The notes under the pieces are model-generated. The model did not search any database, was not told where the DNA came from, and was given only the letters and a program-made list of their open reading frames with translations. Of a DNA stretch of 64,000 nt, positions 35,180 through 60,130 are shown one piece after another (position 1 is the first letter of the stretch; each line of letters starts with the position of its first letter). Source of the DNA: Leucoraja erinacea. Its lineage: Eukaryota. Made by a program: the position numbers and the translations under genes. The stretch covers positions 32,798,001 through 32,862,000 of the forward strand of contig NC_073400.1 in assembly GCF_028641065.1 (NCBI RefSeq), given 5' to 3'.

Positions 35180-35551
35180 TATAATGAAAGGCCTGGATAG
35201 AGTGGATATGGAGAGGATGTTTCCACTATTGGGAGAGTCTAGGACTAGAGGTCACAGCCTCAGAATTGAAGGACGTTCCTTTAGGAAGGAGATAAGGTGG
35301 AATTTCTTTAGGGTGGTGAATCTGTGGAATTCTTTGCCACAGACGGCTGTGGAGGCCACAAGTCAGTGGATATTTTTAAGGCAGAAATAGATAGATTCTC
35401 GATTAGTGCGGGTGTCAGGGGTTAGGGGGAGAAGGCAGGAGAATGGGGTTGGGAGGGAGAGATAGATCAGCCGTGATTGAATGGCGGAGTAGACTCGATG
35501 GGCCGAATGGCCTAATTCTGCTCCTATCCCTTCTGACCTTTCCTCCCTCAG

Positions 35552-35712
35552 TGTTCGTGCAGAAGCCGGTGGCCAACAGCTTCCTGTCGCGGGTACGCAG
35601 AGCTAACGCTGGTCTGGAGGAGTTGCTAGGCAGCAACCTGGAGAGGGAATGCTTCGAGGAGATCTGCTCCAAGGAAGAGGCCCTGGAGCATTTCGAAGAT
35701 GATCAAAAAACG
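35552..35712 (+). CDS. Gla protein copy A, exon 2 (propeptide and Gla domain)
   Basis: cag|[53 protein letters not shown]|gtgagg. F-16, A-10, L-6, R-4, R-1 carboxylase/furin pattern and LERECxEExC motif. 161 nt, phase 1-0. Confidence 0.93.
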
Positions 35713-36641
35713 GTGAGGCACAGAGCCATAGAGCGTGGAAACAGGCCCTTCGGCCCATCTCTCTCATGTACACGGCTCTCAGAAATGTTGCTATGGTCAC
35801 AAGGAATAGGTGTAGAATTAGGCCATTCGGCCCATCAAGTCTACTCTGCTATTCAATCATGGCTGATCTATCTCTCCTAATCCAATTCTCCTGCCTGCTC
35901 CCCATAAACTCTGACACCCGCACTAATCAAGAACCTATCGAGTCGTAGAGTCATAGAGTGATACAGTGTGGAAACAGGCCCTTCGGCCCACCTTGCCCAT
36001 GCCGTCCAACATGTCCCAGCTACACTAGGCAGACTGAGTGGTGCAGTGTGGAAACAGGTCCTTCGGCCCAACTTGCCCACACTGGTCAACATGTCCCAGC
36101 TACACTAGTCCCACCTGCCCATGTTTGGTCCATATCCCTACAAACCTGTCCTATCCATGTACCTGTCTAACTGTTCTTAAATGTTGGGATAGTCCCTGCC
36201 TCAACTACCTCCTCTGGCAGCTCGTTCAACACACCCACCACCCTCTGTGTGGGAAAATAGATTCCTATTAAATCTTTTCCCTTTCACCTTGGACCTATGT
36301 CCTCTGGTGCTCTGGTTTTCTCCCACATTCCAAAGGGTTGTAGGTTAATTGGCTTCTGTAAATTGTCTCCTTAGTGTGTGTAGGACAGTAGGTAGTTAGT
36401 GTAGGTGGTGTCATGATGTATGGGTGATCCTTTGGCCATAAGGAATAGTAGAATGAGGCCATTCGGCCCATCAAATCCACCACCATTCAATCATGGCTGA
36501 TCTATCTCTTCTCCTAACCCCATTCTCTTGTCTTCTCCCCATAATCTCTGCCACTTGAACTAAACAAGAATAGAGAGATTAAACGAGTACTTACCAGTAC
36601 GAAGTTTGATCTGTATTTTATGAGGAGTTACGATGAGGGAT

Positions 36642-36677
36642 TACGTGAAGAACCCACCCAGTGCGCAGGCGCGGCAT
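36642..36677. repeat. DIRS inverted terminal repeat (partner at 41313-41348)
   Basis: tacgtgaagaacccacccagtgcgcaggcgcggcat is the exact reverse complement of 41313-41348. Confidence 0.93.
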
Positions 36678-36793
36678 ACTTCCAAGCAGCGGTGTGGAAT
36701 CACAGGTAGACACAATATATGAAGTAAAGATAGTAAAGATTAAAGAGACATCAGCTCGAGTTTGATCCATATACTGAGGGTGGGAGCGGAGGG

Positions 36794-36906
36794 CACGTAA
36801 TCCCTCATCGTAACTCCTCATAAAATACAGATCAAACTTCGTACTGGTAAGTACTCGTTTAATCTCTCTATTTTACTTCGGAGTCACGTGAGTGACTACG
36901 TGAAGA
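36794..36906. repeat. DIRS internal complementary region (ICR)
   Basis: First part is the reverse complement of the left terminus (about 36569-36647). Second part is the reverse complement of the right terminus (about 41339-41375). The two are joined through ATT. Confidence 0.93.
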
Positions 36907-37066
36907 CTTCAAAGATCTGTGATTTCAAACCGTGTAACAGCTATATCACTCGCTGCCGAAGTTATCGAGGGAGGAAGTGGTATCTAAAGACCAACGAATC
37001 TGTTTGTTTTTTGAAAACAAAAATGTTTATTAAACAATAACAAAAATAGCTCCCTTGGGCTTAAAA

Positions 37067-37991
37067 TTATAAGTTTGCAGTTTCTAAAATTTTCTCTGCA
37101 AACAAGTCTTTCTGCATCAGCGGTTTATGATAAAATATCCGGAACGTTGATTCCCTTGACCATCCTGCTGTGCTTAGGATGTGGTCGATGGGAACATCCA
37201 TCCGTTCCGCAGCTGATGTAGATGCTGCCCTGATAGAATGGGATTTAAAAACATCAGTGTTAATCCCTGCAGCTTTCAGGACCTGTTTTTAACCACCTGG
37301 ATATAGTTTGGCTGGTTACCCGTCCAAAAGGCTTCTTGTGGCTGACCCATAAGGCTTTTTCACTCCCTCTAAGTGTATGGGTTGTGTCTACATAGTTGTA
37401 TAAATGGGTCACTACACAGAGCCTAGGTTCTGGAGGGTAGGCCCGGAAGATTAATGGCGAGTTGGACATACCTGGCCTGGTTTGTTTAACTAACCCCGGC
37501 ATAGTAAATGTGATGCAGTCTGGGGTAGTTACCATGTTGTCCAGTCGTAGTTGATGTAGTGACTGGACCCTTTGTGCAGAGACGAGCGCCATTAGCATGA
37601 TGGTCTTGAGCGTGGATTGCTCTAGACTGAGGGATCCCACCGGTGGCCATCCTCTGAGGTGTGATAGCACGACACTTATATCCCATACATGGGTATACCT
37701 GGGTGTAGGGGGTTTGATATTGTAAATCCCCTTGAGGAGTTTTATGACTAGCGGGTGGGACCCGATGCTATGGTGTCCTGTTGGCATAAGATAAGCAGAC
37801 AGGGCACTTCGTGCTGCATTGACGGCACTGTAGCTCATCTTCTGGTCATGGTGTAAATGGGCCAGGAACTCCAACACGTCCGTGATTGTGGCTTTCTTAT
37901 ACGACGTCCCTGCATCCAAGCAGCACTGCTCCCATTTCTTGATGTATGTCAGGTACTGCTTCTTGGTTGAGTCTCGCAGGGATGCCGACAT
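37067..37991 (-). CDS. DIRS ORF3 tyrosine recombinase, with one +1 frameshift in an A-run at about 37286-37290
   Basis: R.ST..QY and SAQRV in the listed ORF. After removing one A it continues WLKQVLKAAGI...HSIRAASTS...AGWS..STF..FY..., giving the R, HxxR, W and Y catalytic set and ending at TAA 37067-37069. Confidence 0.92.
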
Positions 37992-38045
37992 GGTGGTGAT
38001 AGTTCTTTCTGATAAACCCAGTTCCTGGTAAGGCCTGGTTAAAAC

Positions 38046-39980
38046 CTACAAACCAGGAGTTTTAATTTTTTTATGGCATGGATGACTTATGCCGGATACT
38101 GGGTGAGTCAATAGCTGTGGATGACTGTTAAAGACCATAGGTGACTCTACCACCATGTCGTGAAAGACTGGGAACCATGGTTGGGTAGGCCAGTCGGGTA
38201 CGACCAAAATACCTGAAGCAGAGTCTGACTGTATTTTCTGGAGTACCCGGCTGATGAGGCAGAAGGGAGGGAAAGCATAGAAGAAGAAATTTCCCCAATC
38301 CAGCGTGAAGGCATCTACCGCTGCTGCCTCTGGGTCTGGTTCCCAAGCCACATACATGGGTAACTGGTGATTCAATCTAGACGCGAACAAATCTATATCT
38401 GGCGTTCCATATTGCTTAGTAATTTTTGCAAATATTTTTGGATGTAACATCCATTCGATGTTATCATTGAATTTTCGTGACCTGGTGTCTGCCACTGTGT
38501 TTAGCTTACCTGGTAGATAGGCAGCTGATAGCCAAATATGTCTCTCGACACACCATTGCCAGATTATATTAGCCAATTTGTCGCATGATACTGATTTTAT
38601 GCCACCCATGTGCTTGATGTAGGCCACCACCGTTGTGTTGTCAATCATTAACCTAACATGCACGTGCTGCATATTGGATGAATATGCTTTTAGCCCATAA
38701 AAGGCGGCCAGCATTTCCAAATAATTTATGCCTAGTGAGTGTAGTAGCGATGTCTCGAGATTAGTCCATCTGCCACCTGTGCTGGATATAGAGTTAGTAG
38801 CTCCCCAGCCTAAAGCACTGGCATCAGTCGTGATGACTATGTTAGGATTAGTGATGGCAATGGGACTGTAACTGTGCCAAATATTTTCTGACCACCACTG
38901 AAGTTCTGATATGGCCTCAGTGGGTAAATACATTGTTCGGTCATAATGCCCCCTATTTTGGTGTAATGAATGTGTCCTTGCTCTTTGTAAATTTTGGTAA
39001 TGCAAGGGTCCATATTGTGCAGCTGGAAATGCTGCTACAATACTCCCAATGACTCTGGCAACATGCCGGATCCTTGGTTGTGTATTTGCGATTAAATTGT
39101 TGCATGCTTGCGCTAATGCAACCTTTTTATCCCTTGGCAGAGTAACAGTCATGTGGGTAGAATCGATGGTGAAGCCTAGATAGTCCATATTAGTTGACGG
39201 CTTCAATTTCGATTTATCTGGATGTAGAACAAATCCCAACGTTTCAAGGAGTTGTTTAGTAGCTGAAACTGCTGTGACAGCTAGTTCCTTGGTTCTCCCC
39301 ATTATGAGAATATCGTCCAGATAAGCCATGACTAGGTATTTTTGTTCTCTCAATATTTTCATGGCTACTTTAAGAATTTTGGTAAATAATCTGGGGGCTG
39401 TTGTTAACCCATTGGGCAGTGCTCTATATTGCCATAGTTGCCCCATCCAGATAAATTTCAGGTATCTGAAATGATCCTTGTGAATGGGTACTAAATAGTA
39501 AGCATCTTTAATGTCTATGCTTGCCATGAAGTATCCCTTGGAGATCAGTTGTCTGGCAGTGACAAATGTCTCCATTTTGAAATGTTGATACTCAACAGAT
39601 TTATTTAGTGATGTTAGATCAATGATGATGCGACATCCACCATCTTTCTTGGTTTTAATGAATATATTTGATACAAATTCCAATGGCTCATGTCTGGTCC
39701 TTTCAATGACTCCTTTAGACATGAGCCTATCTAGTTCAGCCTGTCCTTTCTCCTTCTCTAGTTGAGTGGGAAGGAATACCCTTTGGGGTATATGCTGAAC
39801 CGGCGGTATTATGCCTGTTTTAAATTCAATTTTATATCCACTAATACTGTTGAGTATGTATTGGTTGTTAGTGATAGTACACCAAACATGTTTAAATAAT
39901 CGTAAACGCCCTCCTGTTAGTAAAACACCCTTGGTTATTGTATGTTGACAGGAACCAGACCCACCTACCTCCATGTTCAT
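38046..39980 (-). CDS. DIRS ORF2: reverse transcriptase, RNase H and methyltransferase-like domain
   Basis: GGRL, SIDIKDAY, LPNGL..APR.FTK, YLDD (RT); TDAS..GWG, INYLE, DN, N..AD (RNase H); DLFAS, FPPF, PDWPTQPWF (MT-like). 644 aa. Confidence 0.96.
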   Translation of the reverse strand: MNMEVGGSGSCQHTITKGVLLTGGRLRLFKHVWCTITNNQYILNSISGYKIEFKTGIIPPVQHIPQRVFLPTQLEKEKGQAELDRLMSKGVIERTRHEPLEFVSNIFIKTKKDGGCRIIIDLTSLNKSVEYQHFKMETFVTARQLISKGYFMASIDIKDAYYLVPIHKDHFRYLKFIWMGQLWQYRALPNGLTTAPRLFTKILKVAMKILREQKYLVMAYLDDILIMGRTKELAVTAVSATKQLLETLGFVLHPDKSKLKPSTNMDYLGFTIDSTHMTVTLPRDKKVALAQACNNLIANTQPRIRHVARVIGSIVAAFPAAQYGPLHYQNLQRARTHSLHQNRGHYDRTMYLPTEAISELQWWSENIWHSYSPIAITNPNIVITTDASALGWGATNSISSTGGRWTNLETSLLHSLGINYLEMLAAFYGLKAYSSNMQHVHVRLMIDNTTVVAYIKHMGGIKSVSCDKLANIIWQWCVERHIWLSAAYLPGKLNTVADTRSRKFNDNIEWMLHPKIFAKITKQYGTPDIDLFASRLNHQLPMYVAWEPDPEAAAVDAFTLDWGNFFFYAFPPFCLISRVLQKIQSDSASGILVVPDWPTQPWFPVFHDMVVESPMVFNSHPQLLTHPVSGISHPCHKKIKTPGL

Positions 39981-41206
39981 TTTTGGGAGCGTCTTCGTTG
40001 GTGGGTTTGGCTCGCGGGCGTTTTTGTTGGTGCTGTCACGGGGCGGCGTATCTTCCCACGGCTCCGCTCTGGGCCCCTCTCTAAAAAAGAGCTATGGGGG
40101 TAGTGAGGAGCGGTAGCCAGGCTTTCACCAGTCCGGTATCTGCTGGTGGATGCCGAGGGGTGCTGCCAACTGGGTGTCTTCGCCCTGCTCGGCGCTGGTC
40201 CTGCCCTCATGAGGCCTACTGGTTTGGCCGCCGCTTCAAGTTCTTTGAGCCTTTTTCCCAGGTCAGCCCCAAATAGCAGCGCCTCCTTCTCTTGCGCAGG
40301 AGCTTTGCAAAGCCCTGCATATTTGGGGTTGAGGGCAGGCCTGATGTTTTCCCGCCTTAAGTTGTTCATCTCAAAGTGGGTGTTACACATCAGAGCTAGG
40401 ACATCCTGTTGAGGTGTAGTGAGGTCCGTGTGCTCTGCGGACCGAGCAAAGGCGGTGATGGCAGCGGTATGGAGCTTCAGGATGCGCTGCATTTTCAGCT
40501 CTTGGCTCCTAATATGTTGGCCTAGCTGGCTCCATATCTGGCCATTGACGGTCTTAACGCGCAGCGCCTCACAGTTCTCGGGTGCCGTGTATGTCTCGAG
40601 AGCCTCCTGGATTACTTTTTCCTGGAGAGGCTTGTTGGATAGCCGGTTTATGCTGGCCGCCATTTTTGGGGTCAGCATTCTCCCGGCCTTCGGGGGCGCC
40701 GCATACCGGTTGACCACACCCAGCAGCTCTTCTTCCTCCTGCTCCCCTGGCATACTTGTGCAGTCGTCCGCCTGCCCCTGCGATAAGCCAGCCCAGTCCT
40801 GGCCTCCCTTGCTGACCTCAAATAAGGAGGGAGCAGAGGGGTAAGGTGACGGTTTGGAGGAGGCCTCAGCCCGTCCTCCCTGGAGATGCCTTGCCTGCAT
40901 CTCCTGCTCGAACATTTGTTCGAGGAGCTGCCTCATGCAGCTTAAGCGGCTGTCTCCCCGTTTAGCCGGTGGAGAATGTTCCCGTTCCTCCGACGAGTCA
41001 GAGACCACCGGCCGGTCCGTTTTACGGGTGGATTTCCTCCCTGTGCGAGGTGTTGAAGTCGGCAGCACAGGGAGCGGCTCGGGGTCGGGTGTACGGGAGC
41101 GCTGAAAATGCTCCTCTGCCGCCGGTGGCTGCCGCCCAGATGTTGACCCTTCCTCGGGGGGAGTTTGGCAGGCAGTCCGTTTGCTTTGTCGCTTGCGGGT
41201 AGCCAT
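39977..41206 (-). CDS. DIRS ORF1 (gag-like)
   Basis: Uninterrupted ORF from the first ATG (MATRKRQ...) with P.NCE.L, LRRE.I and LFG.DL segments. Its stop overlaps the pol ATG. Confidence 0.85.
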   Translation of the reverse strand: MATRKRQSKRTACQTPPEEGSTSGRQPPAAEEHFQRSRTPDPEPLPVLPTSTPRTGRKSTRKTDRPVVSDSSEEREHSPPAKRGDSRLSCMRQLLEQMFEQEMQARHLQGGRAEASSKPSPYPSAPSLFEVSKGGQDWAGLSQGQADDCTSMPGEQEEEELLGVVNRYAAPPKAGRMLTPKMAASINRLSNKPLQEKVIQEALETYTAPENCEALRVKTVNGQIWSQLGQHIRSQELKMQRILKLHTAAITAFARSAEHTDLTTPQQDVLALMCNTHFEMNNLRRENIRPALNPKYAGLCKAPAQEKEALLFGADLGKRLKELEAAAKPVGLMRAGPAPSRAKTPSWQHPSASTSRYRTGESLATAPHYPHSSFLERGPERSRGKIRRPVTAPTKTPASQTHQRRRSQK

Positions 41207-42353
41207 GCTAGCGACTCTGTAATACAAAAGACTCACTTACCTGAGGTCTTGTCTTTAACCTGCAGCTGGAGAGCCTGGCTCCAGCTGCCGCCGCTGTTGC
41301 ACTGCTGGCGTAATGCCGCGCCTGCGCACTGGGTGGGTTCTTCACGTAGTCACTCACGTGACTCCGAAGTAAAATCTATCTATAGTAGACACAAAATGCT
41401 GGAGTAACTCAGTAGGACTGGCAGCATCTCTGGAAAGAAGGCATGGGTGACATTTAGGGTCGAGACCCTTCTTCAGTCAGCGGAGTGGGTGGGACAGAGA
41501 TAGAATGTAGTCGGAGACAGTCAGACTGGTGGGAGAACTGGGAAGGGGGAGGGAATGGAGAGAGAGGGAAAGCAAGGGCTACTTGAAGTTAGAGAAGTCA
41601 ATGTTCATACCTCTGGGGTGTAAGCTGCCCAAGTGAAATATGAGGTGCTGTTCCTCCAATCTATCTATCTCTGGTTGGCACGGACTCGGTGGGGCCGAAG
41701 GCCTTGTTTCTATGCTGCGTTTAGGAAGAACTGCAGATGATGGAAAAATCGAAGGTAGACAAAAATGCTGGAGAAACTCAGCGGGTGAGGCAGCATCTAT
41801 GGAGGGAAGGTCTCGTCCCAAAACATAGAAAATAGGTGCAGGAGTAGGCCATTCGGCCCTTCGAGCCTGCATCACCATTCAATATGATCATGGCTGAACA
41901 TCCAACTCAGTATCCTGTACCTGCCTTCTCTCCATACCCCCTGACCCCTTTAGCCACAAGGGGCCACATCTAACTCCCTCTTAAATGTAGCCAATGAACT
42001 GGCCTCAACTACTTTCTGTGGCAGAGAATTTCAGAGATTCACTACTCTCTGTGTGAAAATGTTTTTCTCATCTCGGTCCTATTCCTTCACTCCATAGATG
42101 CTGCCTCACCCGCTGAGTTTCTCCAGCATTTTTGTCCACCTTCTGTTTCCATGCTGTATCATTCAACTCAACTAAACTGGCTCTGGGGCAGTCGGTAGGA
42201 GGCTGCCAACCAAGGAATTCACATGAGGGATTAAACACTCCGACGCACAGTTTCATATTACCCGAGCTTCCAGCAACATGCAGGTCTCCTGAATAACCCA
42301 GCGAGACTGCTTCTTCATGTATCATAAATGAAAAGGTTTTTTTTTTTTTGCAG

Positions 42354-42378
42354 GAGAACTTCTGGAAATGGTATAAAG
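42354..42378 (+). CDS. Gla protein copy A, exon 3 (25-nt aromatic stack exon)
   Basis: poly-T-gcag|ENFWKWYK-G|gtatgt. This is the 25-nt phase 0-1 FWxxY exon typical of coagulation-type Gla genes. Confidence 0.9.
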
Positions 42379-43429: not shown

Positions 43430-44529
43430 GTGAGTCTCCCACACTGATTCACACAAACACACACAGAGTGCTGGAGTAACTCAGTAGGTCAGGCAGCATC
43501 TGTGGAGAACGTGGACAGGTGACTTATCAGGTTAGCATCCTCTTCAGAATGGGCCGTTTGAGTCTGAAGAAGGGTCCTGACCCTGAAATATCACTGTGAA
43601 ACGTCACCTATCCATGCTCTCCACAGATGCTGCCTGACCCGCTGAGTTACTCCAGCACTCTGTGAAACGTCACCTATCCAAGCTCTCCACAGATGCTGCC
43701 TGACCCGCTGAGTTACTCCAGCACTCTGTGAAACATCACCCATCCATGTTCTCCACAGATGCTGCCTGACCCGCTGAGTTATGGTGCAGCAGCATCTATG
43801 GAGCTAAGGAAAGAGGCAACGTTTCGGCACGAAACCCTTCTGGAAATAGGCAACGTTTCGGCCCGAAACGTTGCCTATTTCCTTAGCTCCATAGATGCTG
43901 CCTGACCCGCTGAGTTACTCCAGCACTCTGTGTAACGTCACCCATCCATGTTCCCCACAGATGCTGCCTGACCCGCTGAGTTACTCCAGCACTCTGTGAA
44001 ACGTCACCCATCCATGTTCTCCACAGATGCTGCCTGACCCGCTGAGTTACTCCAGCACTCTGTGAAACGTCACCTATCCATGTTCTCCACAGATGCTGCC
44101 TGACCCGCTGAGTTACTCCAGCACTAGTCATTGTTTGGTTTGATGTTTAGTATTATCTGATCGGATTGGATCGAATGCAAAACAAATATTCTCGCTGAAC
44201 CTTGGTCCACAATCACAATCATACTTTATTAGCCAAGTATGTTTTGCAACATACGAGGAATTTCATTTGCCGTACAGTCATACCAATAAAACGCAACAGA
44301 ACGCACAAAACACATCCACCACAGTGACTCCTCCACATTCCTCACTATGATGGTAGGTGAAAAAAAAACAACCTAACCAACAACAGTAAACGTGATTATG
44401 AATAAACTTAAACCTAGTTTGGAAAAAATGCAACAATTGTGTTAGTACAATAATGGTTTAACATTGCAAATTTGGTCTTTAATTGTTGCCTGTAAAGATT
44501 CTGACTTGCATCTTTCATCCCGCCACCAG

Positions 44530-59179: not shown

Positions 59180-60130
59180 GTATGTGTGTTTATTGATCGC
59201 ATTCAACACACAGGTTAGTTATTAATGATCCTCACAGTCTGAAGTGGACTCGTGCATTCATTAAGATATTATATTATATACCATTATATGGTTATAACAG
59301 GCTGTGAAACACGGGGCATCATATTAATGTGCTCGTTACTGAATTGTCATCGTTTTGAGGCATCTGTCGGGAGCGGATGGGAAAGTGGGATAACATAGAA
59401 TGGGCGATCACTGGTCGGCGTGACATCGATGGGCCGAAGGGCCTGTTTCTGTGCTGTATCTCTAAACTAAACCAAACTTAATTAAATCACAGAACGATAC
59501 TATATCGATTCGGTGGGCCGAAGGGCCTGTTTCCATGCTGTATCCTTTCAATCAATCAGTCTTGCTATTGAGGGAGTGCAGCGTAGGTTCACCAGGTTAA
59601 TTCCCGGGATGGCGGAGCTGACATATGATGAAAGAATGGATTGACTGGGCTTGTTTTCACTGGAATTTAGAAGGATGAGAGGGGATCTTTTAGAAATATA
59701 CACAATTCTTAAAGTATTGGACAGGCTAGATGCAGGAAAAATGTTCCCGATGTTGGGGAAGTCCAGAACCAGGGGTCACTGTTTAAGAATAAGGGGTCGG
59801 CCATTTAGGACTGAGACGAGGAAAAACGTTTTCACCCAGAGAGTTGTGAATCTGTGGAATTCTCTGCCACAGAAGGCAGTGGAGGCCAATTCACTGGATG
59901 TTTTCAAGAGAGAGTTAGATTTAGCTCTTAGGGCTAACGGAATCAAGGGATATGGGGAGGAAGCAGGAACGGGGTACTGATTGTGGATGATCAGCCATAA
60001 TCATATTGGATGGCGGTGGTGGCTCGAAGGGCTGAATGGCCTCCTCCTGCACCTATTGTCTATGTTTCTATCCCTCCAACCCCTGCCTGTTCCAGTATCT
60101 GTCCCAATGCCACCTCTACTGTTCCTGCAG

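Follow-up and report, generated by a model that had tools for sequence, protein, structure and literature searches.

A DIRS1-like retrotransposon of Leucoraja erinacea with a candidate HIV-type -1 frameshift site between gag and pol and a pol gene that may be removed as an intron

In retroviruses such as HIV-1, Gag-Pol is produced by a -1 frameshift at the gag-pol heptamer U UUU UUA, and env is translated from a spliced mRNA. In foamy viruses, pol itself is translated from a spliced mRNA. DIRS1-like elements contain a gag gene, a pol gene with reverse transcriptase (RT), RNase H and methylase-like parts, and a tyrosine recombinase (YR) gene, and they are furthermore recognized by inverted terminal repeats, an internal complementary region, and ATT ends (PMC3266345, PMC9210276, PMC5633606). 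No statement on the mode in which pol and YR are translated was found in these three sources; 'splic' and 'intron' occur 0 times in PMC3266345, and 'splic' and 'frameshift' 0 times in PMC9210276. For Ngaro-like elements, a review suggested that YR is reached by frameshifting (Poulter and Butler 2015, as quoted in PMC13003380). In the literature searched, namely, PMC7192593, 10.64898/2026.05.21.726589, PMC3266345, PMC13003380, PMC5633606, PMC9210276, and PMC6681497, no description was found of a spliced DIRS1 recombinase or of a DIRS1 gag-pol slippery site, subjects that Poulter and Goodwin (2005) and Poulter and Butler (2015) may discuss.

The window, i.e., the whole stretch of 64,000 nt of L. 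erinacea DNA that was analysed, contains on its minus strand (41375-36569) a 4.8-kb tyrosine-recombinase retrotransposon that is an ordinary DIRS1 member. It shares with the elements of PMC3266345, PMC9210276, and PMC5633606 the RT and YR, the repeats, and the ATT ends given above, has a putative gag and a putative methylase-like part of pol in the corresponding places, and is intact-looking. The following features are referred to below:

36569..41375, minus strand: full-length DIRS1-like element, with ends ATT...ATT
41313..41375, minus strand: left inverted terminal repeat, 89% identical to the right repeat
36569..36677, minus strand: right inverted terminal repeat with right extension
36794..36906, minus strand: internal complementary region (37 nt against the 5' end and 79 nt against the 3' end, overlapping by 3 nt)
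41235..41243, minus strand: D1, leader splice donor CAG|GTAAGT
41208..41219, minus strand: A0, acceptor-like YAG sites just 5' of the gag ATG
39977..41206, minus strand: gag-like ORF1, 409 aa
40082..40088, minus strand: predicted -1 frameshift site, with the slippery heptamer T TTT TTA read in the gag phase (overlapping A1, see below)
39981..40081, minus strand: transframe stretch, in which the pol (-1) frame is open from the heptamer to the pol ATG and overlaps the gag C-terminus
38046..39980, minus strand: pol ORF with RT, an RNase H-like part, and a methylase-like part; 644 aa long in the window copy
39963..39971, minus strand: D2, phase-0 splice donor GAG|GTAGGT
38043..38053, minus strand: A2, phase-0 splice acceptor TTGTAG|, which opens the YR frame 18 codons before ATG 37991
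37067..38045, minus strand: YR frame, 325 codons from A2 in most copies, 3' end approximate

The DIRS1 hallmarks present are the inverted terminal repeats, the internal complementary region, a 3-nt circular junction, and NTT ends; no target-site duplication was seen in the flanks. The gag-like ORF1 has no match in a Pfam search, lies in the expected place, and is homologous across relatives. The pol ORF matches RVT_1 (E 1.9e-19); its methylase-like part has only a weak PCIF1 match that stays below the cut-off (E 0.0016), and its translation contains DLFAS and YAFPPF, which we take to be adenine methylase-like motifs. In the YR frame, Phage_int_SAM_4 was found in the window copy, and Phage_integrase scored above the cut-off in a diverged copy (L081). 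A genome search gave 29 full-length copies that are 96-100% identical, the window copy counted in, and 418 occurrences of a 16-nt leader motif; the family is young and has many copies. Its closest named homologues are skate (L. erinacea) gene models. Within this family the window copy is atypical, as its YR frame is broken by a frameshift near 37285 and ends at 243 aa versus 307 aa in 23 of the 29 close copies; its pol has 644 aa versus 646 aa in 26 of the 29.

A sequence-only reading of this element had proposed that unspliced RNA makes gag, that removal of an intron D1-A1 makes pol, and that additional removal of an intron D2-A2 makes the recombinase. The sites on which this proposal was built are present. 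D1 reads CAG|GTAAGT at 41241/41240, in a leader that starts at 41375 and is free of ATGs up to the gag start codon at 41206; the acceptor A1 reads TCTTTTTTAG| at 40081/40080, and the next ATG is 39980; D2 reads GAG|GTAGGT at 39969/39968, 12 nt into pol; and A2 reads TTTGTAG| at 38046/38045, in frame with ATG 37991 and 54 nt before it. Three things had been missed, namely, that A1 doubles as a slippery heptamer with the pol frame open back to a stop at 40094, that an additional acceptor-like YAG lies immediately 5' of the gag ATG, and that the window copy is atypical. Under a rough weight matrix, high ranks were obtained for D1 (rank 1 of 202 GT sites), D2 (rank 5 of 202), and A1 (rank 2 of 335 AG sites); A2, a weak acceptor, ranks only 19 of 335.

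D1, A1, D2, and A2 are intact in 28, 29, 29, and 28 of the 29 close copies, respectively, which says little on selection, since retention is expected at 96-100% identity. Diverged families and metagenome loci were therefore compared: 60 copies belonging to other families of this genome (60 of the 127 matches listed; YR 50-71% identical) and 24 metagenome loci. No relatives of the element were found in the viral contigs searched. The comparison of A1 and D2 comprises 36 copies (35 of the 60 diverged loci plus the window copy), the rest being truncated, deleted, or without the site, and its A1 and D2 columns are conserved partly by construction, because the search patterns demanded part of each motif. 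As the copies are related, all counts below overstate independence. D1, D2, and A2 are conserved in this comparison; A1 has the footprint of a frameshift site and is absent or lacks its AG in two families.

Conservation across diverged families supports the proposal that removal of D2-A2 would give the recombinase. Of the 60 diverged copies, 53 have an AG exactly where A2 is predicted, with seven exceptions (three shifted by small indels, one deleted, three with point changes), and A2 is in phase 0 in 16/16 lineages (defined at 85% nucleotide identity). Because the acceptor letters TGY AG also encode Cys-Arg of pol, synonymous positions were examined: the pol wobble base at -6 of A2 is T in 53/53 copies versus 20-43% elsewhere, and the Arg codon starts with AG in every lineage versus 61% elsewhere. 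YR residues 1-18 after A2 are conserved (P5 in 50, G10 in 51, L11 in 53, and T15 in 52 of 53 copies). A Met at the position of 37991 occurs in only 18 of 53 copies, and there is no Met within the first 100 YR residues in 7 of 53; in one family, this holds for five of six copies. The YR frame is closed by a stop at most nine codons upstream in 50 of 53 copies. Given conserved residues 5' of the Met, a non-conserved ATG, and upstream stops, the recombinase start must be joined to something. On the donor side, D2 is in phase in the 36 copies in which both it and A1 can be located. The same is true of a sister family and of an invertebrate family, the latter keeping D2 as GAG|GTAAGG in phase 0. 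The +3 position of D2 is a purine in 36/36 copies and its +4 position is A in five copies, which brings the donor closer to GTAAG despite a change of the pol residue; both are partly by construction, as the search pattern demanded these letters. The GT-AG ends of D2-A2 are thus conserved in place and phase, and since pol starts just before D2 and stops two codons past A2 in most copies, pol is almost exactly the predicted intron 39968-38046.

The acceptor A2 is specific to a clade: among 80 wider homologues, 20 have Gln in front of the YR start, and a long YR frame overlapping pol is seen in many of the others. Unlike the DIRS1-like elements in PMC3266345, PMC9210276, and PMC5633606, the window element has a YR frame without a long pol overlap, opening at a conserved acceptor. 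The loci L121, L124, and L127 have no phase-0 acceptor at the A2 position. In the invertebrate-like family, the YR frame begins 67 codons further upstream, at a pyrimidine-rich TAG (L121 near 5734, L127 near 1757) that is a candidate phase-0 acceptor and overlaps a pol motif.

The footprint at A1 is of another kind. The predicted acceptor at 40081/40080 consists of the heptamer T TTT TTA and the following G (context TCT TTT TTA G). This heptamer is the gag-pol -1 frameshift heptamer of HIV-1. It fits the X XXY YYZ pattern in the zero frame and is followed by an open -1 frame, and pol lies in the -1 frame relative to gag, open from 39980 back to 40094. The spacing between heptamer and D2 is in phase in 32 of 36 copies, at lengths of 109, 112, 118, 124, 133, and 136 nt. 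The -1 frame is stop-free in 31 of 36 copies, which is a weak test by itself, as the +1 frame is also stop-free in 23 of 36. The invariant block begins exactly at base 1 of the heptamer (-8 is T in 36/36, while -9 and -10 vary), and A1 never has C at -3, nor does any lineage have C at -3 or -4, versus a C in 37 of 53 copies at A2. In 18 of 36 copies, the ATG met first 3' of A1 is out of frame (11 at +3; mostly in strong context), and an in-frame ATG between A1 and D2 is missing from L073, L095, and L108. No consensus structure downstream of the heptamer was found by RNAalifold; in a 7-pair stem behind it that was picked by hand, 86% of cells are paired, but no more than 2 pairs covary.

Two families have different arrangements at this border. 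The sister family (L067, L146-L160; at least 40 copies) is without a slippery site and has gag and pol in one frame (7 of the 9 copies with D2 located, of 15 examined); it keeps D2 and A2. L121, L123, L125, and L129, one family of invertebrate-like metagenome loci, carry, in phase with gag, A AAA AAC or A AAA AAT, and have neither an AG at the A1 position nor an in-frame Met before D2. An acceptor for pol mRNA at A1 can therefore not be traced across lineages, the site being absent or without AG in both families. A1 is more likely an HIV-type -1 frameshift site than a splice acceptor, and, given the frameshift footprint and the out-of-frame ATGs, translation of pol from its own ATG after removal of D1-A1 is the weaker interpretation. 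About 31 of 36 copies keep a well-placed ATG, often ACCATGG, two codons before D2; as frameshifting does not need such an ATG, it favours a second, ATG-started route.

The leader donor D1 keeps AG|GTAAG in 16 of 18 5' ends, 101-146 nt from the 5' end, and has G at +1 in 417 of the 418 leader motifs of the genome. Since D1 is conserved while its flanks differ, it is under selection. Its partner may be A0 (giving a short leader intron), A1, or A2, or D1 may bind U1 without splicing. The distance from D1 to A0 is 24 or 33 nt in the window family, and 37-66 nt in 14 of 15 copies of other families that keep D1. Gaps of 24-33 nt likely lie below the minimum intron size, so D1-A0 splicing is unlikely in the window family. 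D1 likely binds U1, it may splice to the acceptor before gag in families with a long enough gap, and a D1-A1 splice may serve as a second route to pol. A TTTAAAA-like motif is seen about 14-20 nt before D1 in most families (L064, L073, L078, L084, L099, L113, and others).

Reads were checked in four runs (X15, X19, X22, X1) of the 24 listed, none of which is on record as RNA; within the element, a depth of about 2-20 was reached, to which related copies contributed much, on both strands, and only 5-25% of the three raw runs was read. In these low-depth runs neither of the two junctions predicted by the sequence-only reading, 41241-40080 and 39969-38045, was seen, and coverage was flat across pol and YR, with no depth step at A2. 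A minor spliced form would be missed, as at least 3 reads were needed to list a joint. In X22, first mates on the plus strand were about 3-fold more numerous over pol, again with no step at A2; such an excess would represent sense RNA in the usual stranded library. A joint from 40810 to 41246 (3 reads, X19) was rejected, as it is 5 nt away from D1, leaves the GT of D1 unused, and has GC..AG on the opposite strand.

Genomic copies derived from spliced RNA were not found among the 418 leader motifs of the window family, among 13 candidates for D2-A2 splicing (versus 1,981 intact D2 motifs), or among 6 candidates for D1 splicing in other families. The rejected candidates comprise L145 (a point change), L161-L173 (unrelated chance matches), L174, L176, and L179 (unspliced with damaged donors), L175, L177, and L178 (unrelated sequences), and L086, in which the leader is joined to the pol start with gag and D1 missing and the joint is not at the predicted sites. 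As DIRS RT acts in trans (PMC7192593), the missing spliced copies count moderately against abundant spliced RNA; they are less telling if spliced RNA is kept out of particles. No protein spanning the D2-A2 junction was found among the 114 anchored of the 169 fetched. A brittle star gene model (P0150) has a gag-like region joined to YR without pol and is a lead only; it is possibly a spliced Gag-recombinase form. Tempered by the blank from the reads, the D2-A2 splice, which is common to three of the four models considered here, is nevertheless held to be probable on sequence grounds.

The model that is rated best, at somewhat above an even chance, combines both signals, i.e., Gag-Pol would be made by -1 frameshifting and a Gag-recombinase by the same frameshift after removal of pol. 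Unspliced RNA would yield Gag from the first ORF, and ribosomes slipping by -1 at T TTT TTA (40088-40082) would extend it into a Gag-Pol fusion. Splicing would remove 39968-38046, i.e., the pol gene, and the spliced RNA would again yield Gag and, by the same slip, a Gag-transframe-recombinase fusion. Both enzymes would be carried into particles by Gag; this packaging, like the ribosome slippage and the splice, we infer from sites, phases, and conservation that are observed directly. A shorter product starting from the Met two codons before D2 may be made too.

Three other explanations have to be weighed against this model. The two-intron proposal, in which a splice from D1 to 40080 yields a pol mRNA translated from the pol ATG and another splice yields the recombinase without any frameshift, draws on the perfect donor in 16 of 18 5' ends, on the position of that donor in the window family, where the gap of 24-33 nt is too short for pairing with the acceptor before gag, on the rank of A1 (2 of 335) and the retention of its AG, on the fact that in the window family the first ATG past A1 is the pol start, and on the retention, in about 31 of 36 copies, of an ATG two codons 5' of D2. 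It is nonetheless judged unlikely: half of the copies (18 of 36) have an out-of-frame ATG first, three loci (L073, L095, L108) have no in-frame ATG between A1 and D2 at all, C is missing from -3 and -4 of A1 in every lineage, unlike at A2, the A1-D2 phase is fixed, and the site is absent or without AG in two families; neither a 41241-40080 joint nor a spliced copy among 418 was found.

If, in contrast, there is no splicing at all, pol would be made by frameshifting and the recombinase by stop-restart or another recoding event at the pol end, with the splice-like motifs as by-products of protein motifs. The lack of both junction reads and spliced copies agrees with this, as do the pol stop two codons past A2 in most copies, a Met at codon 16 in 22 of 53 copies, and the precedent of frameshifting into YR proposed for Ngaro elements (PMC13003380, quoting Poulter and Butler 2015). 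However, no slippery heptamer was found at the pol end, the synonymous positions at A2 are frozen, conserved YR residues lie 5' of any Met, and one family is without a Met in the first 100 YR residues (5 of 6 copies), which makes this explanation quite improbable. Reinitiation, by which pol would start from its own ATG after the gag stop and the D2-A2 splice would give the recombinase from the same start, is rated lowest of all, with little chance of being correct. The gag stop does overlap the pol ATG in the window (ATGA, 39980-39977), and most copies have a stop in the gag frame 2 nt 5' of the conserved ATG, but this leaves the invariant heptamer 109-136 nt upstream and the open -1 frame unexplained, and families without the ATG exist.

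Relative to the systems described at the outset, the frameshift-plus-splice model comes closest to HIV-1-type retroviruses, with the same heptamer in the same phase and a third gene reached by splicing out pol. The window element is, however, not a retrovirus, no consensus stimulatory fold was found, and its donor lies inside the pol start, so that the third protein would be fused to Gag. The spliced pol mRNA of foamy viruses is the closest analogue of a leader-to-pol splice, the less supported route here. Ngaro-like elements resemble the window element in having the YR ORF behind pol in the -1 frame (PMC13003380); unlike in the proposal for these elements, the slippery site of the window element is at the gag-pol border, none is present at the pol-YR border, and YR has a donor-acceptor pair. 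For a clade of animal DIRS1 elements, there is an even chance that pol is an optional intron and that one HIV-type frameshift hangs either RT or recombinase on Gag; under this same reading, sister families would have been rewired (in-frame Gag-Pol, other heptamers), and the conserved leader donor may add Gag-free forms.

If true, DIRS enzymes would for the first time have a concrete expression scheme, and recombinase and RT would be Gag fusions rather than the annotated ATG-to-stop proteins, which matters for expressing and assaying both. The locus gives exact and cheaply testable coordinates for a plan unlike frameshifting into the recombinase. Thousands of copies in the genome carry strong donors and could affect host splicing.

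The window copy lies antisense inside an intron of a plus-strand gene with a Gla domain (Pfam Gla; window 35545-35715 and 42354-42378), flanked on one side by the Gla exon and on the other by a small exon of 25 nt with CAG and GTATG at its borders; a near copy of this small exon is found near 59190. The right end of the element contains a further donor-like CTG|GTAAGT (36597-36589, minus strand), 25 nt from the terminus and ranking 3 of 202 GT sites, which is mirrored in the internal complementary region and is also present in the invertebrate relative L121 near 7034. Elsewhere in the window, at 43528-44181, a short interspersed repeat forms a tandem array with a 66-nt period.
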